From the NCBI GenBank assembly GCA_035941045.1, contig DASZEK010000198.1, forward strand, positions 660 to 64,659: a stretch of 64,000 bases of DNA, read 5' to 3'. Positions 4,042 to 43,654 of this stretch are shown here, one piece after another. A model generated the notes under the pieces. That model was not told where the DNA came from, did no database searches, and saw only the letters and a program-made list of their open reading frames with translations. Within the stretch, counting starts at the first letter, position 1, and each line of letters starts with the position of its first letter. The translations under genes were made by a program, and so were the position numbers. This DNA is from Pyrinomonadaceae bacterium (GTDB lineage: Bacteria > Acidobacteriota > Blastocatellia > Pyrinomonadales > Pyrinomonadaceae).

Positions 4042-5226
4042 ATGTCTAATCAACAACCCGACAAACTCCTCCTGCGCGGCGCCCGACTCATCCTCCCCGA
4101 CTCGGTAGTCGAAGGCCAAGACTTGCTCGTCGAAGCCGGCCGCGTCGCCCGACTCGGGCAAATCTCTGACGCGGGAGCGCGCGTCCTCGACCTCTCCGGC
4201 CTGACCGTCTACCCCGGCTTCATAGACGTTCACATCCACGGCGCCGTCGGCGTGGACACTTTAGAAGCCACGGCCGATGACCTCCACCGCGTCGCGCTCT
4301 TCCTCGCGGGCGAGGGCGTCACCTCCTGGCTCCCCACGCTGGTCCCCGCCCCCGAGGAGGATTACCGCCGCGCCGTCCTCTCCGTCGAACAACTGATGAG
4401 CGAACAGGACGAGCGCCCCCCGGCCGCGCTCGCGCTCGGCGTCCACTACGAAGGCCCCTTCGTCAACGAGCGCCAGTGCGGCGCCCTGCGCACGCCCTAC
4501 TTCCGCCGCTACACGGGCCCCGACTCGCTCGAAGGGCTCGCGACACTCGGCCTCCAAGGCGCCGCCCACATGACGACGCTCGCCCCCGAAGTCGAAGGAG
4601 GAATTGAACTCATCCGCGAACTCGTCCGCCGCGGCTGGGTCGTCTCCATCGGCCACACGCGCGCGCCCGTCGAGCTTTTAGAAGGCGCGCGCGAAGCAGG
4701 CGCCCGCCACATGACCCACTTCCTTAACGCCATGCCGCAACTCCACCACCGCGAGCCCGGACCCGTCGGCTGGGGACTCCTTCGAGACGACGTGACCGTG
4801 GACCTCATCGCCGACGGCGTCCACAGCGACCCCCTCATGCTCCGCCTCGTCATGCGCTGCAAGACGGCCGACCGCATCTCCCTCATCAGCGACGCCGTCG
4901 CGCCCGCCGGCCTCGGCGACGGCGAGTACGCCGTCTGGGGCGAGACCATCAAAGTCGAAGGCGGCCGCACCCGCAACGAGCGCGGCTCCATCGCCGGCTC
5001 CGTCGCCACGCTCGCCGCCGCCGCCCGCATGGTGCTCGGCCTCGGCGCCGCCGAAACCGACCTCGCCCGCATGGCCTCGCTCAACCCCGCCCGCCTCCTC
5101 GGCCTCGCCCACGACCGCGGCTCAATCGAACAGGGCAAGCGCGCCGACCTCACCGCCCTCGACGCCGGGGGCCGCGTGCGCCTCACCCTCGTCGGCGGCC
5201 GCGTCGCCTTCGAGAAAAAAATGTAA
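4042..5226 (+). CDS. nagA: N-acetylglucosamine-6-phosphate deacetylase
   Basis: 394 aa. Carries NagA-type motifs FIDVHIHGAVGVD (HxH metal site), GVHYEGPF and SIGHT, with the overall length and order typical of the NagA amidohydrolase family. Confidence 0.85.
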   Translation: MSNQQPDKLLLRGARLILPDSVVEGQDLLVEAGRVARLGQISDAGARVLDLSGLTVYPGFIDVHIHGAVGVDTLEATADDLHRVALFLAGEGVTSWLPTLVPAPEEDYRRAVLSVEQLMSEQDERPPAALALGVHYEGPFVNERQCGALRTPYFRRYTGPDSLEGLATLGLQGAAHMTTLAPEVEGGIELIRELVRRGWVVSIGHTRAPVELLEGAREAGARHMTHFLNAMPQLHHREPGPVGWGLLRDDVTVDLIADGVHSDPLMLRLVMRCKTADRISLISDAVAPAGLGDGEYAVWGETIKVEGGRTRNERGSIAGSVATLAAAARMVLGLGAAETDLARMASLNPARLLGLAHDRGSIEQGKRADLTALDAGGRVRLTLVGGRVAFEKKM

Positions 5227-5405
5227 CCCTTCGTCCTCAACTTGAGTCTTAATTTATGTGGCCGGACTCTCTCGCCCGAGCGCCCCGAGCGCGGCGCGGG
5301 TGCGTCTCATCAGCCGCGTCAGGGTCCGCTAAACAATCGGGCCGGTCCGAGAAGCCACACCCTGCGGCATCTCGGGCCGGCCCGGACTAATTACGCGCGG
5401 CCGAC

Positions 5406-5897
5406 TCATTTCTCGGCCGCGGGCTTCTTCGGCTCCGCGACGTTCGACAGGTGCGACGCCACGACCCGCCACTTGCCGTTCAGCCGCACGTAGGTGTCCG
5501 TATACCTCGACTGTTCCTTGACCGTCTTGCCTTCGCGCTCGTACTCCGTGACGACCCTTCCCATCAGGATGACGGTGTCGCCGTACGCCCTTGAGCGCAC
5601 GTCCTCCGTGTAGAACTTCGTCCGCGGCATCGCGGCGGCCTTCATGCCGCGAATCATGTTCATCAGTTGGGGCTTCGACTGCATGGAGCCGTTAGGGAAG
5701 GTGATGATGAAGTCGTCGGCCACTATGGCGTCCATCGCCGCCGGGTCCGTCTGCTCGTAGGCGTCGAGCCAGCGGCGCTCCAACGCGCGGACCTCCTGCT
5801 CCGCCTTGCTGACGTTGGTTGTCTGCGCCCGCACGGCGCCTATGAAGCCGAGCGAGCAAACGAGAAGTGTCGCAAGCGTGACCGCTCTCCTGAACAT
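5406..5897 (-). CDS. Secreted SnoaL-like / DUF4440 (NTF2-fold) protein
   Basis: 163 aa. Signal peptide MFRRAVTLATLLVCSLGFIGAVRA. Body shows the pattern RRWLDAYEQTDPAAMDAIVADDFIITFPNG ... YTDTYVRLNGKWRVVASH, typical of DUF4440/SnoaL-like domains. Confidence 0.6.
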   Translation of the reverse strand: MFRRAVTLATLLVCSLGFIGAVRAQTTNVSKAEQEVRALERRWLDAYEQTDPAAMDAIVADDFIITFPNGSMQSKPQLMNMIRGMKAAAMPRTKFYTEDVRSRAYGDTVILMGRVVTEYEREGKTVKEQSRYTDTYVRLNGKWRVVASHLSNVAEPKKPAAEK

Positions 5898-5942
5898 GAT
5901 TCTCCTCCTGCAAATTAAGGCCGCCGACGAGTCTTAAATTCG

Positions 5943-6581
5943 TCAGGCGGGTATCAGCGTGTACCCCGGCGCGGCCTGCCCCGGCCACAGCTCGTAAAGC
6001 ACCTCGGCCTCCTCGGTGCCGCCGTGCCTCGGGCTGGAGGGCAGGCCGATGGCGCGCGCCGCCGCGATGCTGAGTTCCCCTATCTTGTTGCGCGGCCCAC
6101 GGTCCGCGACCACGCACTCGACGGACCTGCCCCCCAGCGTCACGCGCGCGCGGCAGCCGCACACCACGCCCCTCGTCCTGTTAATGACGAGCGGCGGCAC
6201 GACGATGTAGGGCACGGTTTCGGCGTCCACGTAGGCGGCCGGGTCGTCCGCCGCCTTTCCGGGTTGACGGTACCATGTCTTCGAGGCGATGACGCCGCCC
6301 GGAAAAACCCTCGGCTCATTGTCCGGCCCCAGTATCACGATGTCCCGCGCCCAGTCGTGCGCGCAGACGACCCGGCCGTGGTCGTTCCTCATGCCGCCGT
6401 TGGCGAGCGCCTCCGAGCCGGAGTCGTCCACCTTGTAGGCGGGCTGTGCCCCGTTCTGCCCGTTGGCGCCGTCGGCGTCGATGTCGGCGTCGGCGACGAA
6501 GTGGACTCGCCCGTCGTCCTCTTCGATAATCCTGCATGAGTAGCCTTCGTCGTGTGAATTTATAGTGCCCAGTTCGCGCAT
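5943..6581 (-). CDS. Glycoside hydrolase family 75 (chitosanase)-like protein, apparently without a signal peptide
   Basis: Motif order DADIDADG ... VPYIVVPP ... VADRGPRNKIGELSIAAARAIG parallels the fungal GH75 pattern DMDVDCDG ... VPFIVIP ... GDSNG..GEAS (from memory). ATG at 6581 is preceded by GGAAGGAG 8 nt upstream; the longer ORF reaching 6701 has no such site. Confidence 0.45.
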   Translation of the reverse strand: MRELGTINSHDEGYSCRIIEEDDGRVHFVADADIDADGANGQNGAQPAYKVDDSGSEALANGGMRNDHGRVVCAHDWARDIVILGPDNEPRVFPGGVIASKTWYRQPGKAADDPAAYVDAETVPYIVVPPLVINRTRGVVCGCRARVTLGGRSVECVVADRGPRNKIGELSIAAARAIGLPSSPRHGGTEEAEVLYELWPGQAAPGYTLIPA

Positions 6582-6697
6582 GAGTCGGACTCCTTCCGGT
6601 GTTGGGGTTGGAACGTATGGAAGAACGGCAGGGCGGGGACTTATATCGACACGGACGGCGAAAGTCAACGCCGGTAAGGCGCGGCCGGCGCCTGACT

Positions 6698-7849
6698 TCA
6701 TTGCTTCTTATCCGGCGCCTCGGCGGCGCGCTTGGCGTTCTGGAGGACGCGGGCGCGCTCAAGCTCGCGGGCGCCTTCCTCCTTCCGGCCGAGCTGGACG
6801 AGGGCGCGGCCGAGCTGGTAGTGGCCGTCGGCTATCTCGTCGCGGAGGCGGACGGCGGCGCGCAGCTCTTCGACGGCGCGCTCGCGCTCGCCCGCCTGCA
6901 TGAGCGCGCGCCCCAGGGCGAAGTGCGTGTCGAACTCTTCGGGGTAGGCGCGGGCGGCCTGTTCGAGCAGGGGGACGGCGCGCTCGGGCTGCGAGCGCGT
7001 CAGGTAGAGGTCGCCGAGCGTGAAGGCGGCGCGCGCCATCGAGGGGTCGCGGCGCAGGACTTCCCGCAGCTCGCGCTCGGCCTCGTCGTAGCGGTAGAGC
7101 TTCCAGTAGAGGAAGCCGAGGCCGTAGCGCGTCCGCACGGAGTCGGGCGCGAGCGCGACGGCGCGCTCGTAGGCCGAGGCCGCCTCCGGCGTGCGCCCAG
7201 CGCCGTCGAGCGCGTCGCCGTACATGGCCCAGAGCGTTTCGGTGCCGCCGTCTTCGAGCTCGACCCTGCGGCGCAGGACGCCTGCCGCCTCCGCGAAGCG
7301 GCGCTGCCTGACGAAAGACTGCGCGGCCAGCTCAAGCAGTTCGCGGTCGCGCGGCGAGCGCGCGAGCAGTTGGGCTATCTCGCGCGTCGCCTCGCGGTAC
7401 TTCTCCGAGCCGACGAGCGCCGCGGCCAGCGCGCGCCGCGCCGCCTCGTTCTCCGGCTCAAGCGCGAGCGCGCGGCGGAGTGGCTGGACGGCCGAGACGA
7501 ACTCGCCCTTCCTGACGAGCGCGAGGCCGACGTTGAAGTGGGCGCCGGCAAGCTGCGGGTCGAGCGCCGCCGCCCGCGTCCAGACCTCGATGGCGGCGTC
7601 GGCCCGGCCCTGCCGGTTGCGCGCGACGCCGAGGTTCACCCACGCGCGCGCGTCGGCGGGCGCGAGCCTGACGACCTCCTCCCAGACCGCCTCCGCGCCG
7701 CGCCAGTCGCCGGCCTCCTCGCGCGCGCGCGCCGCGGCGTAGAGCGAGCGCACGCGCTCAGCGTCGCCGCCCTGCCGCACGGCCGCGTTAACGGCCCACG
7801 GCGCCGCGAGCGATAGCAGCATGACGAGCGTGGCGCAGCCCCTCTTCAT
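6698..7849 (-). CDS. Secreted tetratricopeptide-repeat (TPR) protein
   Basis: Signal peptide MKRGCATLVMLLSLAAPWAVNA begins at ATG 7849. It is followed by consecutive ~34-aa TPR-like units (e.g. AWVNLGVARNRQGRADAAIEVWTRAAALDP; THFALGRALMQAGERERAVEELRAAVRL). The Arg-rich 54-aa upstream extension was rejected. Confidence 0.8.
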   Translation of the reverse strand: MKRGCATLVMLLSLAAPWAVNAAVRQGGDAERVRSLYAAARAREEAGDWRGAEAVWEEVVRLAPADARAWVNLGVARNRQGRADAAIEVWTRAAALDPQLAGAHFNVGLALVRKGEFVSAVQPLRRALALEPENEAARRALAAALVGSEKYREATREIAQLLARSPRDRELLELAAQSFVRQRRFAEAAGVLRRRVELEDGGTETLWAMYGDALDGAGRTPEAASAYERAVALAPDSVRTRYGLGFLYWKLYRYDEAERELREVLRRDPSMARAAFTLGDLYLTRSQPERAVPLLEQAARAYPEEFDTHFALGRALMQAGERERAVEELRAAVRLRDEIADGHYQLGRALVQLGRKEEGARELERARVLQNAKRAAEAPDKKQ

Positions 7850-34576: not shown

Positions 34577-35266
34577 TCAGCCCGCGACCTCGGCGACGCC
34601 CGCCGCTTTGGCGTTCGAGGGGGGCGGCGGGGCGGCGGCGGCCGAAGCCTTTTCGGGCGCGGCCGGCTTCGCCTGTGGCGCCGGGGCGGCGGGGCGCGGC
34701 TTCGCCTGCGCGGGCTGCTCCTTCGAGGTCATGCGGCAGCCGCCTTCGAAGACGGCGCCCTCTTCGACGACGAGGGCGGGCGTCTGGATGTTGCCGCGGA
34801 CGCGGGCCGTGCGGCCGAACTCGATGCGCTCGGTGGCGACGATGTCGCCGTTGACGGTGCCGTTGATTTTGGCGGCGGCGACCGCGATGTTGGCCTCGAC
34901 GTGGCCCCCGGCGCTGACGATGAGCGTGCCCTTGTCGGAGGTGATGTTGCCGTTGAGGCGGCCGTCGATGCGGAGCATGCCCTTGAAGTTGGCCTCGCCG
35001 CTGAGGACGGTCGAGCCGCCGACGAAGCCGCTCATGATGCCTTCGCGGATGTCGCGCGCCAGCGCCTCGCTCTCGGTGACGGCGCGCGTGGCCGAAGGCG
35101 TGGGGCGTTCGGGCTCGGGCGTCGGCGGCGGAGTCGCCGTCTGCGGCTGCGCCTGCGGCGTCGGCTGCGGCGGCGCGGCGAAAGGCGGCTGGGGTTGGGG
35201 GTTCGGTTGTTGGAACTTGTCTCGCTCGTTCGCCTCGGGTCTCGGCGACTTACCCATTCTGAGCAT
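34577..35266 (-). CDS. Bactofilin (polymer-forming cytoskeletal protein) with Pro-rich N- and C-terminal tails
   Basis: Core beta-helix repeats LSGEANFKGMLRIDGRLNGNITSDKGTLIVSAGGHVEANIAVAAAKINGTVNGDIVATERIEFGRTARVRGNIQTPALVVEEGAVFEG. GGAGG lies 7 nt upstream of ATG 35266. Confidence 0.85.
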   Translation of the reverse strand: MLRMGKSPRPEANERDKFQQPNPQPQPPFAAPPQPTPQAQPQTATPPPTPEPERPTPSATRAVTESEALARDIREGIMSGFVGGSTVLSGEANFKGMLRIDGRLNGNITSDKGTLIVSAGGHVEANIAVAAAKINGTVNGDIVATERIEFGRTARVRGNIQTPALVVEEGAVFEGGCRMTSKEQPAQAKPRPAAPAPQAKPAAPEKASAAAAPPPPSNAKAAGVAEVAG

Positions 35267-35434
35267 AACTTGACCTCCGCCGGCCGCACGCCGGCTGATG
35301 TTCGGACGATTAAGAGAGCGTGTACCTTTTAGCGACAGTAAGGTGGGCAACGCTGTCGGGGAAGAGCGAGGCATGTTAACCCGTGACGGCCCGGTTTAAT
35401 CATTACGATGTAGTTGCATTTCAATTATGACTCC

Positions 35435-35471
35435 GCGCCTTCGCGTGAAATCAAGAATCACGCGAAGGCGC
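35435..35471 (-). terminator. Hairpin terminator downstream of the second TonB-dependent receptor
   Basis: 14-bp stem gcgccttcgcgtga / tcacgcgaaggcgc with a 9-nt loop, 29 nt beyond the stop codon. Confidence 0.5.
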
Positions 35472-35499
35472 AAAGTCGCAAAGAAGGGGTCGAGTTTGT

Positions 35500-38238
35500 T
35501 TAGAAGCGGAGGCGGTAGCGGGAGAAGAAGCTGCGGCCGGGGCCGTCGATGCCCCAGCTTATGCCGCGGTAGTTCTTGTCGGCGAGGTTGTCGAACTCGA
35601 ATTGTAGGTCGGAGTTCTCGCCGAGCTTGAGGCCGCCGCGGATGCCGACGAGGCCGTAGCCAGGCACGGCGACGAAGAGCGGCGCCGAGGTGGCCGAGCC
35701 GAGCAGGCGGTTTTGCACCTGCGCGAGCGTTTCGCCCGTCGGGATGAGAATCGTCTCGTCGCCCGTCGCGCAGCGCCCGTCCGGCCCCGGCGCGACGAGG
35801 CCGCGGACGCAGGCGCCGCGGCGGAAGAAGTCGCGGATGTCGTCGCGCGAGCGCGTCGCGCCCGTGCGCCGGTCGCCGAGGTCGAGAGACGAAAGGCGCG
35901 TCTGGCGGTCGAAGGCGACGCCGTAAGCCTCGACCCAGAAACTCCCGCCCGCGGGCTCGTAACGCAGGCGCAGGAAGCCGTTGGGCGCGGGCGTGCCGCC
36001 TTCGATGTTCGGCGGCAGGCCCGTCTCCTTGTCCTTGGCGTAGATGTAGGTGAAGCCTCCGGAGGCCGCGAAGTCGCGCGCGAGCGGGGCGTCGAAGCCG
36101 AGCTCGGTGCCGTAGAGGCGGGCGTCCGAGAAGTTGGCGCGCACGAGGACGGGCGCGGCTGAGAGCGGGACGAAGACGACGCCGTTCGAGAGCTGGCTCG
36201 TGATGGGCTGGTCGCCGAGCAAACGCCCCGTCGAGCCCGCCGGCAGAATCAACGCCTGCTTCGTGATGGCCTTGTTGATGTCAATGAGAAACCCGGTCGC
36301 CTCGGCGCGCCAGCGCCCGCGGCGGTAGAGGACGCTGGCGTCGAAGTTGTTGCTCACCTCCGACTGCTGCCGGACGACGGGGCGGCCCGTGGAGACGGCT
36401 GCGCGCCCGGCCGTCGTGCCGACGGTCCCGCCGAGCGCGGCGGCCGTCGCCGTGTCAATCTCGAAGCCGTCACCCGTCAAACCCAGAGTGCCGAGGTCCG
36501 TGATGTTCGGCGCGCGGAAGCCGCGGCTGTAGTTGAAGGCGAGGTTGAGGTTGTCGGCGGCCGTGACGACGATTCCGGCGCGGCCCGAGAAGTCGTCAAC
36601 GTAGAGGCTGTCGTCCGGCCACAGGCGCGCGCCGCCGATGGTGGGGCTGTCGGCCGCGCGGGAGCGGTAAGAAGCGACGTTGTAGCGGAGCGCGCCGCTC
36701 AGGCGGACGCGGCCCGGCACGGCCTCGTAGAAGTCCTGCACGAAGAGGCCGGACTGGACGTAGCGCGCCTCGTCGGGGGCGCGGCCGCGCGAGGGTGCGT
36801 CAACGTTGGTGACGGGGTTGAGCGTGTGGGCGGGCGCGTTGACGCGTTCGTGGTAGAGGTCGCCGCCGAAGAGGAGCGTGTTGCGGGAGGAGAATCGCTT
36901 GTCGAGGTTGAAGCTGAGGCCGTAGACGTTTGTGCGCTCGTACTGGAACGTGACGTTGCCGAAGGGGTTGCCGCGACCGCCCTGGTTGACGCGCTCCTCA
37001 CGCTGACTGTTGAAGGAGAAGGTGAGGGAGCCGGTGTCGAAGAAGCCGACGCCGTGCTTGACGTAGCGGCCGTAGAAGAAGTCGAGCATCAGGTTGCGGA
37101 GGTCGCTGATGAGGTTGCCGTCGCCGCCGAGCGTCTGGTCGTAACGCTTGCCGCCGTCCTGCTGCGCGCGTTGGTAATGGAAGACGAGCTGTTGGTCATT
37201 CGTCGGCGCGTAGTTGATGTGGAACGTGCCGCCGTACTGCGTGAAGGCCGTGTCGGTCAGCCTCTCCCCGAGGATGTCGGAGCGGAGGCCGAGGAAGCGG
37301 TTGACGGAGGAGTGCGAGTCGTAGCCGCCGCCGGGGCGGAGGGTGTTGGCGCGGCGGGCGGCCAGGTTCATCAAAAGTCCGACGCGCTTGGAGCCGTAGG
37401 TGACGAGCGTGTTGCCGCCGAAGGAGAGGTCGGCGGAGTTGAAGAAGGTGGTGGCCTCGCCGTGCGTCTCGGGGCGGTCGAAGCCGAAGCCGGGCGTCTG
37501 CGAGACGAGGGCGACGGTGCCGCCGAGCGAGTCGGAGCCGTACTGCGCGCTGTTCGGCCCGCGCAGGACTTCGACGGCGCGCAAGCTTGTCGGCTCGTTG
37601 AGGTTGAAGAAGGTGTTGACGCCGCCGCGCTGCGCGCTCGTCGTGTAGCGCACGCCGTCAACGTAGGTCGAGACGTTCTTGCCGGTCAGGCCGCGCACGA
37701 AGATGGCGCCCATCGTCGGGCTCGTCCTTTGGAGTTCGAGGCCCGGCTCCTCGCGCCCGACCTGGGCGAGCACGGCCTTGGCGCGCATGAGGATTCCGTC
37801 TTCGGGGATGACGTTGACGCGCTGCGCGACGCGCGAAGGGTCGAGCGCCTGCCCCGTCTCGGCCGTCACCGTGACGTGCTCGTTCAGCGTCTCGGCTTCG
37901 AGCGTGACGGCGACTGTCGTGGCGCCGCTCGCGCCGACCTGCGCCGTGACGCGGCGGCCCGCGAAGCTCTTCATCGCCACGCGCACGACGTAGGAGCCGG
38001 TCTGCACGCCCTCGAAGCGGAAGCGCCCTTCGCCGTCGGTCCGCGTCGTCTTCAATAAGACCTGATGCGGGTCGATGAGGTAGACGCGCGCGCCCGCGAC
38101 CGCCGCCCCGGCAGCGTCCGTGACCGCGCCTTCGATGCTGCCCTGCGCGGCCTGACGGGCGTGGGCGGGCGCAGGCGCGAACGCGACGAGGAGGCACGCG
38201 CAGAGGAGCGCGCGGGTGAGTTGTCCGTTGAACGTCAT
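35500..38238 (-). CDS. TonB-dependent outer-membrane receptor with N-terminal carboxypeptidase-regulatory-like domain
   Basis: 912 aa. Signal peptide ...LLCACLLVAFAPAPAHA. CarboxypepD_reg-like segment SIEGAVTDAAGAAVAGARVYLID...DGEGRFRFEGVQTGSYVVRV. Plug segment VNVIPEDG...GAIFVRGLTGKNVSTYVDGVRY. C-terminal FSRYRLRF. Confidence 0.85.
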   Translation of the reverse strand: MTFNGQLTRALLCACLLVAFAPAPAHARQAAQGSIEGAVTDAAGAAVAGARVYLIDPHQVLLKTTRTDGEGRFRFEGVQTGSYVVRVAMKSFAGRRVTAQVGASGATTVAVTLEAETLNEHVTVTAETGQALDPSRVAQRVNVIPEDGILMRAKAVLAQVGREEPGLELQRTSPTMGAIFVRGLTGKNVSTYVDGVRYTTSAQRGGVNTFFNLNEPTSLRAVEVLRGPNSAQYGSDSLGGTVALVSQTPGFGFDRPETHGEATTFFNSADLSFGGNTLVTYGSKRVGLLMNLAARRANTLRPGGGYDSHSSVNRFLGLRSDILGERLTDTAFTQYGGTFHINYAPTNDQQLVFHYQRAQQDGGKRYDQTLGGDGNLISDLRNLMLDFFYGRYVKHGVGFFDTGSLTFSFNSQREERVNQGGRGNPFGNVTFQYERTNVYGLSFNLDKRFSSRNTLLFGGDLYHERVNAPAHTLNPVTNVDAPSRGRAPDEARYVQSGLFVQDFYEAVPGRVRLSGALRYNVASYRSRAADSPTIGGARLWPDDSLYVDDFSGRAGIVVTAADNLNLAFNYSRGFRAPNITDLGTLGLTGDGFEIDTATAAALGGTVGTTAGRAAVSTGRPVVRQQSEVSNNFDASVLYRRGRWRAEATGFLIDINKAITKQALILPAGSTGRLLGDQPITSQLSNGVVFVPLSAAPVLVRANFSDARLYGTELGFDAPLARDFAASGGFTYIYAKDKETGLPPNIEGGTPAPNGFLRLRYEPAGGSFWVEAYGVAFDRQTRLSSLDLGDRRTGATRSRDDIRDFFRRGACVRGLVAPGPDGRCATGDETILIPTGETLAQVQNRLLGSATSAPLFVAVPGYGLVGIRGGLKLGENSDLQFEFDNLADKNYRGISWGIDGPGRSFFSRYRLRF

Positions 38239-38343
38239 GGAGCAGTCCCTTGTCTCTGGCTGAAGGTCGGCGCGTCGGGGTTTTAAAGGCTGAATGTAAA
38301 CGCGGAAGGCTTCTACTACCAGCGGTCGTAATTGGCGCGCGCT

Positions 38344-39354
38344 TCAGCGGAGGGCTTCGACGGCGTGCTCGATGAGGAGGTGAACGGCGCGCAGCGTGTC
38401 GGCGAAGAAGAGTGTGAAGGCGAGGGCGGCGCAGAGGCCGGAGCAGGAGGCGAGCGCGGCGCGGCCGAGCAGGCGCGGGCGCGCGGGCGCGGGTCTTTCG
38501 CCGTCGCGCTCGGCCAGCGCGAGCAGGCGGCGGACGCGCCGCTCGACATCGCCTTCGCCCTCGCCCGCGAAGAAGACGCCGGACGGCGCGTAAAGCTTGG
38601 CCGAGGCGGGGACGTGGCGCGCGATTTTGACGAGCGCCGAGGCGAGGCAGAGCGTCTGCGAGGTGCCGCGGCGCGCGGCGTATTCGTCGGCCGCCTCTTC
38701 CGAGGCGAGCTGCCAGCCGCGCGTCAGCGGGCGGCCGAGCGGGACGAGCGGCAGCGCGTCCTGACAGGCGCGGATGAGCGCGCGCTTGAGGTTGTCGCGC
38801 GCCCGCAGGTGGCCGCGCTCGTGCGAGACGACGGCCGCCAGCTCTTCGGGCGTCAGGGATTCGAGGACGGAGGTGGCGACGAACAGGCGCGGCCGGAAGA
38901 CGCCGAGCACGGCGACGAGAGGGAACTCGTGCGGCAGTTTGTAGGCGGGGACGGAGACGCCGCGCAGGCGCACCGGCTCGGCCCCGCGCAGCCACCCGCG
39001 CGCGAGCCTGCGCGTCGCCGTCCAAGTCCCGAGCAGCCTTCGCAAAGCTACGCCGACGCCCGCCGCCGAGACGAGCGCCAGCGCGAGCAGCTTAACGCCG
39101 ACCACCTCCTCCGTCTGGCGCGGCTCGTGCGCGACGTAGGCGGGGACGACTAAGGCGAAGACGGCGAAGACGGCGAAGGCGGTCGGCAGGACTCTCAAAG
39201 TGAAGAGCGCGTCGGCGCGCGTCCGCGCGTCCCAGCGGGAGGCGCGGCGCGAGAGAGCGCGCCAGGCGAGCGCGGCGGCGGCGGCGCCGAGCGTGTTGGT
39301 CGCCAGCAGGGCCGCGAGCGCGAGGCAGACTCCGAGCAGCTCGTACACGCTCAC
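38344..39354 (-). CDS. M56 family (BlaR1-like) membrane metallopeptidase lacking an extracytoplasmic sensor domain
   Basis: 336 aa. N-terminal TM helices and HExxH site AAVVSHERGHLRARD. GTG start overlaps the blaI-like stop (GTGA). Much shorter than the ~600-aa BlaR1/MecR1 (recalled), so no penicillin-binding sensor domain can be encoded. Confidence 0.8.
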   Translation of the reverse strand: MSVYELLGVCLALAALLATNTLGAAAAALAWRALSRRASRWDARTRADALFTLRVLPTAFAVFAVFALVVPAYVAHEPRQTEEVVGVKLLALALVSAAGVGVALRRLLGTWTATRRLARGWLRGAEPVRLRGVSVPAYKLPHEFPLVAVLGVFRPRLFVATSVLESLTPEELAAVVSHERGHLRARDNLKRALIRACQDALPLVPLGRPLTRGWQLASEEAADEYAARRGTSQTLCLASALVKIARHVPASAKLYAPSGVFFAGEGEGDVERRVRRLLALAERDGERPAPARPRLLGRAALASCSGLCAALAFTLFFADTLRAVHLLIEHAVEALR

Positions 39355-39794
39355 TCCTCCCCGCCGAGGGCGCGCTTCTTCTCTTCGACGAGGGCCTGAA
39401 GCTTGTCGAGCAGCGAGCGGTCGCGCTCGGTCACCGTGTCCACGATGCAGGCCAGCAGCGGCTCGACCTTGACGGCGTCGCCTTCGAACAGTCCGTCAAT
39501 CACGTCCTCGGCCACGCCGCGCTCGAAGTCTTCGCGCGAGACGCGGGGCGAGTAGACGTAGGCGCGGCCCGACTTGCGGCGCGCGAGCAGGCCCTTCTTG
39601 TAGAGGCGGTCGAGCGTCGTCATCCAAGTCGTGTAGGCGGTCCTCTGCTCGTAGGCGTGGTAGATGTCGCCCGCGCTCACCTCGCCGCGCCCCCAGGCTT
39701 CTTCGAGGGCCGCGCGCTCCAGCCGACCCAGCGCGAGGCCCACCACCTCGCGCGGTCGCCTGAACCCGAACAGCGTGAACTGCGGAGTCTTCAT
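39351..39794 (-). CDS. BlaI/MecI/CopY family transcriptional repressor
   Basis: 147 aa. Winged-helix N-domain (LGRLERAALEEAWGRGEVSAGDIYHAY...TTLDRLYKKGLLARRKSGRAYVYSP) plus a C-terminal dimerisation helix. Translationally coupled to the M56 gene. Confidence 0.85.
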   Translation of the reverse strand: MKTPQFTLFGFRRPREVVGLALGRLERAALEEAWGRGEVSAGDIYHAYEQRTAYTTWMTTLDRLYKKGLLARRKSGRAYVYSPRVSREDFERGVAEDVIDGLFEGDAVKVEPLLACIVDTVTERDRSLLDKLQALVEEKKRALGGEE

Positions 39795-40026
39795 CCCCTT
39801 ACAAGGCCCGAAGAGAAACGTCCCCGACGACTTCTAAATGACTTCCGGCGGCGGCCCATTGTGGCCGGGGCGCGGGGGTTTTGGCAAGAGGCGGGTGGTG
39901 GTATCATGTGCGTCGTGCGGCTCCCGCCGCCCGCCCGAGCCCGGCCGCCTGTGCCGCCGCGCAGGCCGCAATCTCACGACCCCGAAGCAGACTCAAGACG
40001 GTTTGCCCTGACCAGAGGAAGCAGAG

Positions 40027-42981
40027 ATGTTAAGAAAATCCCTCCTTGCCCTCGCCCTTTGTGCGTCCGCCCTGCCGGCCCTCGCCGCCGCGCAGACCTG
40101 CACGCCGCCCGCCATCGTCGCCAACGCCAAGACGGAGAACCTCTTCACGCCCGAGCAGGAGATGATACTGGGCGAGCTGACGGTCGAGGAGATGGCGGGC
40201 GAGTTCCGCCACGTCAACGACGAGAGGCTCCTCGCCTACGTCCGCGAGATGGGCGCCCGGCTTGAGAAGCACCTGCCGCAGACGGGGCTCAGGTTCCAGT
40301 ACCACATCATCGACATCCCCGAGGTCAACGCCTTCAACATCCCCGGCGGCCACGTCTTCCTCGCGCGCAAGCTCATCGCCTTCTCGCTGAACGAGGACGA
40401 GCTGGCCGGGGTGATGGCGCACGAGCTGGGCCACGCCGTCGTGCGCCACGCCTCCACCGACATGTCCGTCCTGATGCGGAAGGTGCTCGGCATCAGCTCG
40501 CTCGGCGACCGCAAGGACATCATCGACAAGTACAACCTGCTCATCGAGCGCGCCCGCACCAAGCGCGTCTCGCGCCCGCGCGGGCACATGGACGAGCAGC
40601 AGCTCGAAGCCGACAAGATAGGCGTCTACGCGATGGCCGCCGCCGGCTACGACACCGCCGCCTATTACAACGCCTTCGCGCGCATGACGGAGAGTAAGGA
40701 GAAGTCGGGCAACTGGTTCTCCGACATGTTCAGCAAGGTGACGCCCGAGCAGAAGCGTCTGCGCGAGATGGCGAACGCCGCCGAGAAGCTGCCGGCCGCG
40801 TGCCGCGAGGGGCGGGCGGCGCGCGCCACCGAGGACTTCCTCAAGTGGCAGGCCGACGTGGTCTCGTTCCGCGAGGCGGCGCGGCGCGAAGAGCTGCCCG
40901 GCCTCGTCTGGAAGAAGGAGCTGTCGCCGAAGCTGCGCAGCGACATCTCCCACTTCGCCTTCAGCGGCGACGGCAAGCATCTGCTCGCGCAGGACGACTA
41001 CGCCGTCACCGTCATCCGCCGCGACCCGCTCGAAGTGCTCTTCCAGATTCCCGTCGAGGCGGCCGAGGAGGCCAACTTCACGCCCGACGGCCAGTTCGTC
41101 GTCTTCACGACCGAGAATTTGCGCTACGAGAAGTGGAGCGTCGCCGAGCGCAAGCCGGTCGAGGTGCGCGAGCTGGTGGTGCGCGGCGACTGTTGGGAGC
41201 ACAAGCTCTCGCCCGACGGCAACTACCTCGCCTGCATCGACATCACGACCAGCGTCACCATCCTTGAGACCAAGACGGGCAAGAGGGTCTGGGAGAAGAA
41301 GGAGTTCTACCAGCTCTCCCTCTTCGAGTTCATCGCCTGGCTCGAAAGCGCGGCCAGCGGACGCGACGACGGCGGGACCAACTTCTTCCGCATCGAGTTC
41401 TCGCCCGACTCGCGCTACGTCGTCTTCAGCCGCTCCGACAAGTACCGCTTCCGCTTCTCCTTCGACATGATGGTCATGGACAAGAGCGAGAACACCGCCC
41501 TCGCCATCGACCTCCAGACGATGAAGCCGGCCGACGTGGGCGGCGACCTCAAGAAGCTCGCCGCGCACGCCTACGCCTTCCTCGACGCCGGCAAGGTCAT
41601 CGGCATGCCCTCGCTCAAGCCCGAGGAGGGCGGCGTCTTCGCCTTCCCGTCGGGCAAGCGGCTGCAAAAGTTCACCTTCTGGGGCAAGGTCGTCAAGCGC
41701 ACGGCCAACCCCGACTACGTCGTCGTCAAGCCGCTGGCGAACACGAAGATGGGCGTCTTCGACTTGAAGAAGGGGGCGCTCGCCGCCGGCTTCGACAAGC
41801 AGGACGGCACGCTCTGGAACAACCTCATGGCCTACGAGTCCGTCAACGGCAAAATCCTGCTCCGCGAAGTCTTCTACAACGAGGCGGACAAGAAGTTCGA
41901 CTTCAAGGAGGTCGGCACCGTAGACATCCCCATCAGCTCGCTCAAGAAGCTGGAGGCGGCCGAGGTCTCGGACAACTTCAACTGGCTGCTGCTCTCCTCG
42001 AAGAGCCGCGGCGGGCTCTGGAACCTCTCGACCGGCGAGCGCAAGGTCTACGTGCGCGGCTTCAGGGGCGGCGTCGTCGGCGACGACGGCGGCGCGGTCG
42101 GTGACTTCCCCGAGCTGATGGACGTGCCGCACAGCCTCGTCTTCATGAACCCGAAGGACGAGTCGGTCGTCGGCTTCCGCGAGCTGCCCGAGCGCGGCGC
42201 GCGCCAGCACGGCCGCTTCGTCCTCTCGCGCCGCAGCCTGAAGGAGACGGCGCCGAAGGACGAGAAGAAGGACGAGAAGAAGGAGGGCGACAAAAAGGGC
42301 GAGGCCGCGCCGCCGCGCCCCGACGACTCGAATGACCGGGACCTCGGGCGCGAGGTGCGCTTCGAGCTGAAGGACTTCATCCAGGACAAGGTCATCTGGA
42401 CGCGCGACTTCACCAAAGAGGCGCCCTCCTTCACCTTCGACGAGTTCAGCGGCCGCCTCATCTTCTACTGGCGCCTCGGCAGCGACGCCGGCAAGGCCAA
42501 GCTCAAGGAGTCGGCCGAGATTCAGGCCAAGGCCGACGCGCTCGGCAACAAGGCCGACGACTACCTCGTCGAAGTCGTTGACGCCTACGCGCAGAAGACC
42601 ATCGGGACGGTGCTCCTGGAAACCGGCAAGGGCTCCTTCGGCGTCGGCGGCGGGGGACTCTCGGAAGGCAACTGGCTCGTGCTCAAAGACACCGAGGGGC
42701 GCGTCCTCGTCTACGCCATCAAGGAGGGCGAGCTGCGCCACCGCTTCTTCGGCAAGCACGCCGCCGTCAACCCGCGCCGTAACCAGCTCCTCGTCGAGAA
42801 CTTCCCCGGCGAGCTGAGCCTCTACGACCTCGACACCGGCGACCGCCGCGCCACCCTCCGCATCAACGGCACCGCCGCCTTCACCCGCTTCAACCTCGGC
42901 GGCAACCGCCTCCTCGTCCTTAACGACACCCAAACCGCCTACGCCTTCGACCTCGACAAACTCGCCGCCAAAGCGAACTGA
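40027..42981 (+). CDS. Secreted M48 family metalloprotease fused to a large beta-propeller-like C-terminal region
   Basis: 984 aa. Signal peptide MLRKSLLALALCASALPALAAA. M48 signature NAFNIPGGHVFLARKL...AGVMAHELGHAVVRH. More than 600 aa of repeated beta-strand blades (FSGDGKHLLAQDD; FTPDGQFVVFT; LSPDGNYLACID; FSPDSRYVVFS). A Lys/Glu/Asp-rich insertion APKDEKKDEKKEGDKKGEAAPP. Confidence 0.8.
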   Translation: MLRKSLLALALCASALPALAAAQTCTPPAIVANAKTENLFTPEQEMILGELTVEEMAGEFRHVNDERLLAYVREMGARLEKHLPQTGLRFQYHIIDIPEVNAFNIPGGHVFLARKLIAFSLNEDELAGVMAHELGHAVVRHASTDMSVLMRKVLGISSLGDRKDIIDKYNLLIERARTKRVSRPRGHMDEQQLEADKIGVYAMAAAGYDTAAYYNAFARMTESKEKSGNWFSDMFSKVTPEQKRLREMANAAEKLPAACREGRAARATEDFLKWQADVVSFREAARREELPGLVWKKELSPKLRSDISHFAFSGDGKHLLAQDDYAVTVIRRDPLEVLFQIPVEAAEEANFTPDGQFVVFTTENLRYEKWSVAERKPVEVRELVVRGDCWEHKLSPDGNYLACIDITTSVTILETKTGKRVWEKKEFYQLSLFEFIAWLESAASGRDDGGTNFFRIEFSPDSRYVVFSRSDKYRFRFSFDMMVMDKSENTALAIDLQTMKPADVGGDLKKLAAHAYAFLDAGKVIGMPSLKPEEGGVFAFPSGKRLQKFTFWGKVVKRTANPDYVVVKPLANTKMGVFDLKKGALAAGFDKQDGTLWNNLMAYESVNGKILLREVFYNEADKKFDFKEVGTVDIPISSLKKLEAAEVSDNFNWLLLSSKSRGGLWNLSTGERKVYVRGFRGGVVGDDGGAVGDFPELMDVPHSLVFMNPKDESVVGFRELPERGARQHGRFVLSRRSLKETAPKDEKKDEKKEGDKKGEAAPPRPDDSNDRDLGREVRFELKDFIQDKVIWTRDFTKEAPSFTFDEFSGRLIFYWRLGSDAGKAKLKESAEIQAKADALGNKADDYLVEVVDAYAQKTIGTVLLETGKGSFGVGGGGLSEGNWLVLKDTEGRVLVYAIKEGELRHRFFGKHAAVNPRRNQLLVENFPGELSLYDLDTGDRRATLRINGTAAFTRFNLGGNRLLVLNDTQTAYAFDLDKLAAKAN

Positions 42982-42999
42982 CCAACTCCCCACCTCAAA

Positions 43000-43039
43000 A
43001 AGCAGCGCGGCCGCCAACACATTGGCGGCCGCGCTGCTT
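43000..43039. terminator. Bidirectional hairpin terminator
   Basis: 16-bp perfect stem aagcagcgcggccgcc / ggcggccgcgctgctt with an 8-nt loop, lying between convergent genes. Confidence 0.7.
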
Positions 43040-43053
43040 CTCTAATTTCGTGG

Positions 43054-43509
43054 CTAGGATGTCGGCCGTCCGCTAAAGACGAAACGGCTATACCCGAACC
43101 GGGCCGCGGTCCTGCGCCGGTGACAGTTGGCGCAACGTACCTCACACTTCTGAATTTCTGCGAATATTTTATCCCACGATATGTTGTTGATAATCATCTG
43201 CGTGACGGATTCCACCTTGACGGTGTCGCTCCTGTGGTCAAATTCGAGCACAACCGGGTCAGACTCCCCGCAATCTACGCACGGGTGTTCTTGAAGGTAA
43301 TCGTAAGTCTTACGCGCCTTCTCTTTACGAAGCCTCGTCCGACTCTCGGTGTGCTTCTGCTTATAAACGGCGTGGTTACTGTAATACCGCTCCTGATAAC
43401 TGGCTTTGAAGCAGTCGCGACACCAGGAAGCCTTGCCCCCGCGTGCTCTCCGTCTCGCCGGGAACTCACTCTCAAGCTTCTCCACCCGGCAACGTGAACA
43501 TCTTTTCAT
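43054..43509 (-). CDS. HNH endonuclease family protein (low-GC, likely horizontally acquired)
   Basis: 151 aa. N-terminal zinc-ribbon-like CSRCRVEK...WCRDC. HNH core CVDCGESDPVVLEFDHRSD...KCEVRCANCHRRRT. Visibly lower GC and weak GC3 bias compared with neighbours. Confidence 0.75.
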   Translation of the reverse strand: MKRCSRCRVEKLESEFPARRRARGGKASWCRDCFKASYQERYYSNHAVYKQKHTESRTRLRKEKARKTYDYLQEHPCVDCGESDPVVLEFDHRSDTVKVESVTQMIINNISWDKIFAEIQKCEVRCANCHRRRTAARFGYSRFVFSGRPTS

Positions 43510-43579
43510 ATGACGCGGCCTTGCGACGCGGCACGGGGTTAGTCAAAAGGATTGATGAAAGGGTGGGCGGTAAGGGAAG

Positions 43580-43654
43580 GGCGGCTAGTCGGGCTTGAAC
43601 CGACGACCTCGTGATCCACAGTCACGCGCTCTAACCAACTGAGCTATAGCCGCC
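43580..43654 (-). tRNA. tRNA-His (anticodon GUG)
   Basis: Hand-folded cloverleaf: G(-1)-GCGGCTA / TAGCCGC-C acceptor with encoded G-1:C73 (His identity). D arm GCTC..GAGC. Anticodon stem CGTGA/TCACG with loop CTGTGGA. T arm GTCGG-TTCAAGC-CCGAC. CCA is not encoded. Confidence 0.9.

Follow-up and report, generated by a model that had tools for sequence, protein, structure and literature searches.

A BlaI/short-protease pair of Acidobacteriota and a conserved operator-like site linking it to TonB-dependent receptor genes and a heme importer

We analyzed a stretch of 64,000 nucleotides from a soil acidobacterium of the Pyrinomonadaceae (contig DASZEK010000198.1; hereafter the window, whose positions are cited throughout). 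Three neighboring genes on its minus strand encode a BlaI-family repressor, a short BlaR1-like zinc protease and a TonB-dependent receptor. The new finding is a conserved operator-like site that links the BlaI/short-protease pair to receptor genes and to a heme importer. We consider it rather probable that the locus is a BlaI/BlaR-type repressor-cutting switch for TonB-dependent uptake, most likely of heme, instead of beta-lactam resistance. The receptor is best read as a regulated target with its own promoter, which is more than a third operon gene. The features described in the first-pass annotation of this locus were all found in the sequence at the coordinates it gave: the three open reading frames (ORFs), the GTGA overlap of the first two, the 105-nt gap before the third, the SHERGH motif of the protease and the CarboxypepD_reg-type receptor.

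The stop codon of the protease gene and the ATG of the receptor gene are 105 nt apart (38343..38239). The protease-receptor spacers of related loci have CTACGAnnnCTGGTAGTAG in common, and the corresponding site of the window is a strictly conserved 17-bp pseudo-palindrome, TACGACCGCTGGTAGTA (TACGAC-N5-GTAGTA; 38314..38330, minus strand), within a conserved block at 38310-38334. It is the predicted BlaI operator and the only match to the motif in the window, with 0.02 expected by chance. A -10-like hexamer of the putative receptor promoter, TACATT (38293..38298, minus strand), is located 15 nt downstream. In the related loci the motif always has the orientation of the downstream gene, and TAnnnT follows it; the offset is exactly 15 nt in 62 of 70 sites and deviates by no more than 2 nt in 67. 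By this geometry the pseudo-palindrome spans about -44 to -28 and straddles the -35 of a housekeeping-type promoter, a typical place for a repressor site.

Because the gap contains the conserved palindrome and TAnnnT at a fixed offset, the receptor gene appears to have its own regulated promoter. A scan for consensus promoters detected no sigma-70 site within these 105 nt; the promoter was recognized only via the related loci. No terminator was found in the gap, and read-through from the protease gene into the receptor gene may occur. The first-pass annotation had read the three genes as one operon, a claim that a separate promoter and terminator in the gap would count against; the conserved promoter architecture does so in part. 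Neither in the window nor in the related loci is there a motif upstream of blaI, at the full or a lowered threshold, and autoregulation of blaI via the motif was rejected on this ground.

About 95 related loci from several classes of Acidobacteriota were compared in total, among them 80 species-representative loci with protease orthologues, all from Blastocatellia or Pyrinomonadaceae. In every one of the 80, BlaI is encoded ahead of the protease, and the motif is found 3′ of the protease gene in most of them. An orthologue of the window receptor (52–73% identity) is encoded directly downstream, 100–500 nt away, in 31 of 70 informative loci and farther off in three. At least eight of the remaining loci have, in the same position, an unrelated receptor-like protein of ~1000 aa with CarboxypepD_reg and OMP_b-brl_4 domains, and classical Plug receptors are downstream in two further loci. 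Given ~31 Plug-domain genes in the home genome, these counts place the adjacency of pair and receptor far above chance. Receptor adjacency is scattered on the protease tree, where at least 11–14 changes are needed, which argues against an artefact of a single clade. Automated calls place 39 of 66 motif sites in related loci before one of two receptor families. Most of the others precede cut or over-extended ORFs that are the same receptors by tblastn, and a few precede ABC-type genes. Over the ~95 loci, the motif comes after the BlaI/protease pair and is followed in nearly all cases by TonB-dependent receptor genes. Genes of at least three unrelated receptor families, as well as those of a heme ABC importer, have this motif upstream.

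The association was also seen in a second, independent set of 151 genomes, drawn evenly from the class. The motif pattern occurs in 24 of the 39 genomes that carry the protease and in 11 of the 112 that do not, and the latter rate is no higher than that of a reversed-pattern control. For 23 of these 24 genomes, the contig with the protease gene also carries a site no more than 4 kb downstream of that gene. Pattern matches in the protease-less family f9 were considered as real sites and rejected as chance, since three inspected matches have no related genes nearby and no -10 spacing. Two genomes without a receptor by the pair contain a single motif copy elsewhere, directly upstream of a gene for the second type of receptor. 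In other classes of Acidobacteriota, where the protease is 28–47% identical, nine of 14 loci keep the motif by the pair, before receptor-like genes. No FecR, ECF or other regulator gene is conserved in the related loci. The functional tie between pair and receptor that the first-pass annotation had assumed is therefore strongly supported by sequence comparison, both by the BlaI-protease pairing in 80 of 80 loci and by the adjacent receptors.

A whole-genome weight-matrix scan of the 6.7 Mb home genome revealed only two strong sites, with scores of 32.3 and 30.5 bits; the next best match has 16.7 bits. The second site (contig C43, position 19362) is located ~100 nt upstream of a four-gene operon, which encodes a 1010-aa CarboxypepD_reg/OMP_b-brl_4 receptor-like protein, a Peripla_BP_2 binding protein, a FecCD permease and an ATPase. 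Proteins of this operon match PF01497 and PF01032, and the ATPase passes the NCBIfam equivalog model for heme ABC ATPases (NF010068; 289.7 bits versus 261). Among the 11 solved structures closest to the binding protein are heme binders of the ShuT, BhuT, HutB and HmuT type (E = 1e-37 to 1e-19), while several of the 11 carry generic names only and BtuF reaches merely ~1e-8. On these matches the operon is classed as an HmuTUV/ShuTUV-type heme ABC importer. This receptor-HmuTUV operon also adjoins the BlaI/protease pair, in either orientation, in four related loci (L007, L037, L055 and L068). Only two receptor genes in the home genome carry the motif, compared with ~31 Plug-domain genes in all, and the predicted regulon consists of two receptor promoters and one heme ABC importer.

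The receptor of the window (35500..38238, minus strand; 912 aa) contains a signal peptide, a CarboxypepD_reg domain, a TonB box (EHVTVTA) ahead of the plug and a 22-strand-type barrel, and its C-terminus (...RLRF) has a final Phe. The CarboxypepD_reg, Plug and TonB_dep_Rec_b-barrel domains all exceed their cut-offs (63.4 bits for PF07715 and 90.4 bits for PF00593). No STN signalling domain matches the receptor, and the N-terminal domain is a generic CarboxypepD_reg. Membership in a heme-receptor family was rejected: the best such matches are far below the NCBIfam cut-offs (TIGR01785, 128.3 versus 316.9; TIGR01786, 115.1 versus 323.8), and the PDB matches are unspecific and confined to the plug. 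The heme assignment therefore rests on the second operon.

The protease (38344..39354, minus strand; 336 aa, probably 334) has four predicted transmembrane (TM) helices and no sensor domain. Its zinc site is composed of the HExxH motif H178-E179-R-G-H182 (SHERGH) and an ExxxD motif at 219-223 (E219 and D223), and all 80 orthologues share H178, E179, H182, E219 and D223. Pfam Peptidase_M48 passes with 33 bits (cut-off 20.3), while Peptidase_M56, with 30.6 bits, narrowly misses its cut-off of 31, and the orthologues are labelled either M48 or M56 in public annotation. A profile search of PDB sequences found only an HtpX fragment and not BlaR1. At the fold level, an AlphaFold model built on 29 orthologues (pLDDT 78, pTM 0.76) has as its best Foldseek matches the cryo-EM structures of S. 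aureus BlaR1 (8EXQ, 8EXS and 8EXP; probability 1.00, TM 0.45), followed by ZMPSTE24 and Ste24. Hydropathy and charge (positive-inside loops) predict TM1 (4-28), a basic cytoplasmic loop, TM2 (49-72), an acidic periplasmic loop of 13 residues (73-85), TM3 (86-106), the cytoplasmic protease domain, TM4 (298-320) and a periplasmic tail of 16 residues. The predicted topology is that of BlaR1, with the protease domain between TM3 and TM4. The Pfam scores place the protein between M48 and M56, a caveat to the M56 label of the first-pass annotation.

A penicillin-binding (transpeptidase) sensor domain is absent, as the first-pass annotation had deduced from the length: PF00905 has no match and the protein stops 16 residues after TM4. 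TonB_C is also absent from the window protease. The short form is the norm of the family, in which nearly all full-length proteins among the best 150 listed have ~310–336 aa and match the profile end to end; the family comprises 972 cluster representatives at E ≤ 1e-30. The sensor-less design is already known, since only ~6% of ~15,000 M56 proteins carry a transpeptidase domain (C. difficile CenIR preprint, bioRxiv 10.64898/2026.04.08.717257). The commonest M56 architecture has no recognizable C-terminal domain, and the second commonest has TonB_C (10.64898/2026.04.08.717257).

The short periplasm-facing parts are strongly conserved. P71, E77, P78, E329 and V332 are identical in 80 of 80 orthologues, H325 in 79, E83 in 78 and Y73 in 75. 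This conservation of ~30 periplasm-facing residues, which equals that of the catalytic site, suggests a built-in mini-sensor. The candidate sensing residues would be the invariant H325/E329 on the C-terminal helix together with E77/E83 and Y73 on the TM2-TM3 loop; an HxxxE helix face, combined with glutamates and a tyrosine in the loop, would be suited to binding a metal or heme iron. We tentatively propose, at clearly less than even chances, that the protease itself is a minimal heme or metal sensor at the membrane-periplasm interface, which would cleave BlaI and thereby turn on TonB-dependent heme uptake.

The repressor (39351..39794, minus strand; 147 aa) is a winged-helix protein of the BlaI/MecI/CopY family. 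PF03965 (Penicillinase_R) matches residues 22-135 with 72.8 bits (cut-off 22.6, E = 3.8e-20), and the nearest solved structure is 2G9W (E = 4.7e-8), which is M. tuberculosis BlaI Rv1846c, whose partner protease also has no sensor domain. The best NCBIfam match is CopY_TcrY (TIGR02698), with 40.9 bits versus a cut-off of 122. No CxCx4CxC (or CxC) metal site or other Cys motif is present in the 147-aa sequence. Residues 1-20 (39735-39794), N-terminal to the Pfam domain, form a conserved extension (MKxPxFxLxGFRRP...), which is common to the orthologues and is not present in S. aureus BlaI as aligned.

The blaI and protease ORFs overlap in the sequence GTGA. However, the protease starts two codons later in 27 of 28 aligned orthologues, and 61 of 63 related loci keep a start codon at the later position, at a distance of -1 to +9 nt from the stop codon of blaI. 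For these reasons the true start is probably the GTG at 39348, 2 nt past the TGA, which gives a protein of 334 aa. The coupling of the two genes is tight whichever start is used. A sigma-70-like promoter candidate for both genes (TTGCCA-N18-CACAAT; 39858..39887, minus strand) is a weak consensus match only. Rfam has no match for a riboswitch or leader RNA at E ≤ 1 in 38100-40100.

The observations are the gene anatomy and its conservation, a motif at a constant distance from a -10 box, the restriction of this motif to two strong sites in the genome and its occurrence together with the pair. On them we base the following mechanism, in which the motif-binding and repressor roles of BlaI, its cleavage by the protease, the identity of the ligand and the sense of the regulation are inferred. 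Both blaI and the protease gene would be translated together from a promoter of their own. A BlaI dimer would bind TACGAC-N5-GTAGTA and cover the -35 of the receptor promoter, and would do the same at the only other such promoter, that of the receptor-like protein and HmuT/U/V-type importer on contig C43. Once activated, the four-helix protease would cleave BlaI at its cytoplasmic HExxH/ExxxD site, and the uptake genes would be de-repressed. The cue, which could be heme or metal imported by the receptors, would probably be read by the ~30 residues themselves, where the membrane meets the periplasm.

Several observations weigh against this mechanism. Unlike the autoregulated classical BlaI systems, the locus has no operator at blaI. 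The window receptor scores under the heme-family cut-offs (128 versus 317 for TIGR01785), and the pair has no adjoining receptor in 28–36 of the 70 species, depending on the receptor families counted. The predicted -35 (TGGTAG/CTGGTA) is poor, and the conserved block could partly be a promoter element of another factor. The genome encodes three other BlaI paralogues. The site at which S. aureus BlaI is cleaved is not obviously conserved in the window BlaI. In the literature searched, no description of BlaI-family control of TonB-dependent or heme-uptake genes was found; the sole hint is a BlaI/M56 pair of P. gingivalis, whose expression shifts with hemin supply (PMC10470040).

The first-pass annotation had suggested that the receptor is the sensor and that ligand binding at the outer membrane reaches the short protease by physical contact, in the manner of FecA and FecR, after which BlaI is cleaved. 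The receptor is indeed conserved beside the pair, the strongly conserved extracytoplasmic residues of the protease could be a docking surface, and physical coupling of some M56 proteins to receptors is plausible in general, as many M56 proteins, including a paralogue in the home genome, carry TonB_C. Nevertheless, we give this explanation little credence. The receptor contains no STN, and its CarboxypepD_reg domain also occurs in the second, unrelated receptor-like family. The 13 and 16 periplasmic residues of the protease are too few to span the periplasm, and the protein has no TonB_C. Only two of ~31 Plug-domain receptor genes in the genome carry the motif, and about 40–50% of species have no adjoining receptor. 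Moreover, the same site precedes at least three unrelated receptor families and an ABC importer, which fits poorly with one specific protein-protein contact. In a looser form of the idea, the protease could sense a ligand that the receptor imports.

The motif could instead belong to another regulator or to an alternative sigma factor for heme or iron uptake promoters, with the pair regulating something else. The unequal conservation of the two halves, the promoter-element-like block CTGGTAGTAG at -35 with its fixed -10 spacing and the missing autoregulatory site at blaI agree with this explanation. We judge it unlikely, given that the motif stays with the pair from class to class within the phylum, including loci with a different downstream gene, and is at background frequency in genomes without the pair; in addition, no further regulator gene is conserved in the loci, and the -10 has the housekeeping form TAnnnT, unlike an ECF-type -10. 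It is likewise improbable, to about the same degree as signalling by the receptor, that BlaI itself senses heme or metal and leaves the DNA as CopY does, with the protease setting BlaI turnover or having a housekeeping role. In favor of this, direct metal sensing is known for CopY, a member of the same family (PMC11672702); the top NCBIfam match is CopY_TcrY, though far under its cut-off, and the window BlaI has a conserved N-terminal extension. The absence of CxCx4CxC or any other Cys motif argues against direct sensing, and a strictly co-inherited, translationally coupled protease with invariant catalytic and periplasmic residues points to input via the protease. That the receptor is beside the pair by chance, without a regulatory tie, has next to no likelihood: with ~31 receptor genes per genome, 31 orthologous receptors and at least eight of another family are directly downstream in 70 species, and the conserved motif is located in the gap, so that the comparative data already contradict it.

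The surroundings of the locus show further variation. Four related loci (L027, L049, L061 and L073) have a site 10–330 nt after the protease stop, which is followed by genes for an ABC ATPase and an ABC-2 membrane protein (exporter-type), and a second site farther along, ahead of a ~1000-aa receptor-like gene; from these arrangements, the regulon may take in an export function. In 23 related loci a gene for a Peptidase_M50B-like membrane protein (~275 aa; e.g. L059:7776-8606) is convergent after the receptor gene. The window does not contain this gene and has there a bactofilin gene (35374..34577) and a gene for a 194-aa lipoprotein-like protein. A weak terminator-like hairpin with a T-run (35458..35473, minus strand), 27 nt past the receptor stop, was matched by a consensus scan; such hairpins are no commoner than in shuffled sequence.

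Upstream of blaI, the closest relatives (L015, L045, L051 and L080) have tRNA-His(GTG) at a distance of ~85 nt. The tRNA-His of the window (43579-43653, minus strand) is separated from blaI by 3.8 kb (region 39795-43653), which contain a low-GC HNH endonuclease gene (43054-43509) and a divergent gene (40027-42981) for a 984-aa protein with M48 and beta-propeller domains. The latter was considered as a part of the system and rejected, as tblastn finds no homologue in the 80 related loci. Because the tRNA-His is directly upstream of blaI in the closest relatives, the 984-aa gene is regarded as a local insertion, and the 3.8-kb segment beside the tRNA gene looks like an insertion in sequence terms.

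The home genome contains four BlaI/M56 pairs in all, including that of the window; the others are located at C100:14360-16794, C176:~4590-6986 and C160:26514-28966. The extracytoplasmic ends of the four M56 proteins are a transpeptidase domain (classical BlaR1 type), TonB_C, a polysaccharide deacetylase and none; the transpeptidase belongs to the C100 paralogue and TonB_C to the C176 paralogue. With four different ends on a common scaffold, these pairs amount to a small natural set of exchanged sensors.

A beta-lactam sensor is missing from the majority of annotated BlaI/BlaR pairs, and hardly any of them has a signal or target assigned. For a family of 972 representatives, this locus offers a concrete predicted operator, a small regulon and a short list of candidate sensing residues. 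If the proposed switch is real, proteolysis of a BlaI-type repressor governs nutrient uptake across the outer membrane in Acidobacteriota, a phylum with almost no regulation worked out, and the routine annotation of such pairs as beta-lactam-resistance regulators would be corrected. If the mini-sensor is also real, it would represent a phylum-wide third control of heme or iron acquisition, beside Fur-type repressors and receptor/ECF-sigma signalling. It would also provide the first physiological role and the first ligand for the commonest ‘BlaR-like’ class, which has no recognizable sensor domain.

Compared with known systems, the window locus resembles S. aureus BlaR1/BlaI and MecR1/MecI in its winged-helix BlaI and co-transcribed four-TM HExxH/ExxxD protease. 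Its predicted operator is, like that of BlaR1/BlaI, palindromic with TAC...GTA outer bases, and BlaR1 cryo-EM structures are the best fold matches. In contrast to the S. aureus systems, the window protease has no penicillin-binding domain and its sequence similarity to BlaR1 is marginal (M56, 30.6 versus 31); the predicted operator differs in sequence and spacing (6-N5-6 here), blaI has no operator, and the predicted targets are receptors and a heme importer, not beta-lactamase or PBP2a. The operator of C. thermocellum BlaI_0696, determined by DNA affinity purification sequencing (DAP-seq) and electrophoretic mobility shift assay (EMSA), is, like the predicted operator of the window, an inverted repeat of two 6-mers 5 nt apart (PMC8457756), and this shared geometry speaks for the proposed switch. 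However, its half-site is GTCTAT, compared with TACGAC/TACTAC in the window, and BlaI_0696 is autoregulated with paired operators (PMC8457756).

The sensor-less design is shared with BlaI-paired M56-type proteases without a transpeptidase domain, Rv1845c/Rv1846c (M. tuberculosis), MAB_2414c/2415c (M. abscessus), PvmS/PvmR (P. aeruginosa) and CenR/CenI (C. difficile), whose signals are unknown (10.64898/2026.04.08.717257, 10.64898/2026.08.03.742534). Their regulons are cell-envelope hydrolases, energy metabolism or virulence genes, whereas a TonB/heme regulon is predicted for the Acidobacteriota lineage. CenR also has a long disordered tail, while the extracytoplasmic part of the window protease is minimal yet strictly conserved. 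The fusions of M56 with TonB_C share the BlaI-paired M56 scaffold and a thematic tie to TonB-dependent receptors; in contrast, the window protein cannot dock on a TonB box, and its tie to receptors is via the predicted DNA operator. The FecA-FecR-FecI and HasR-HasS-HasI systems likewise employ substrate-related control of receptor genes with inner-membrane proteolysis, in the latter case also for heme uptake. They require a receptor with an STN domain, a FecR/HasS domain in the periplasm and an ECF sigma factor, all of which are missing from the window locus, and their output is the release of a sigma factor, whereas that proposed for the window system is the loss of a repressor.

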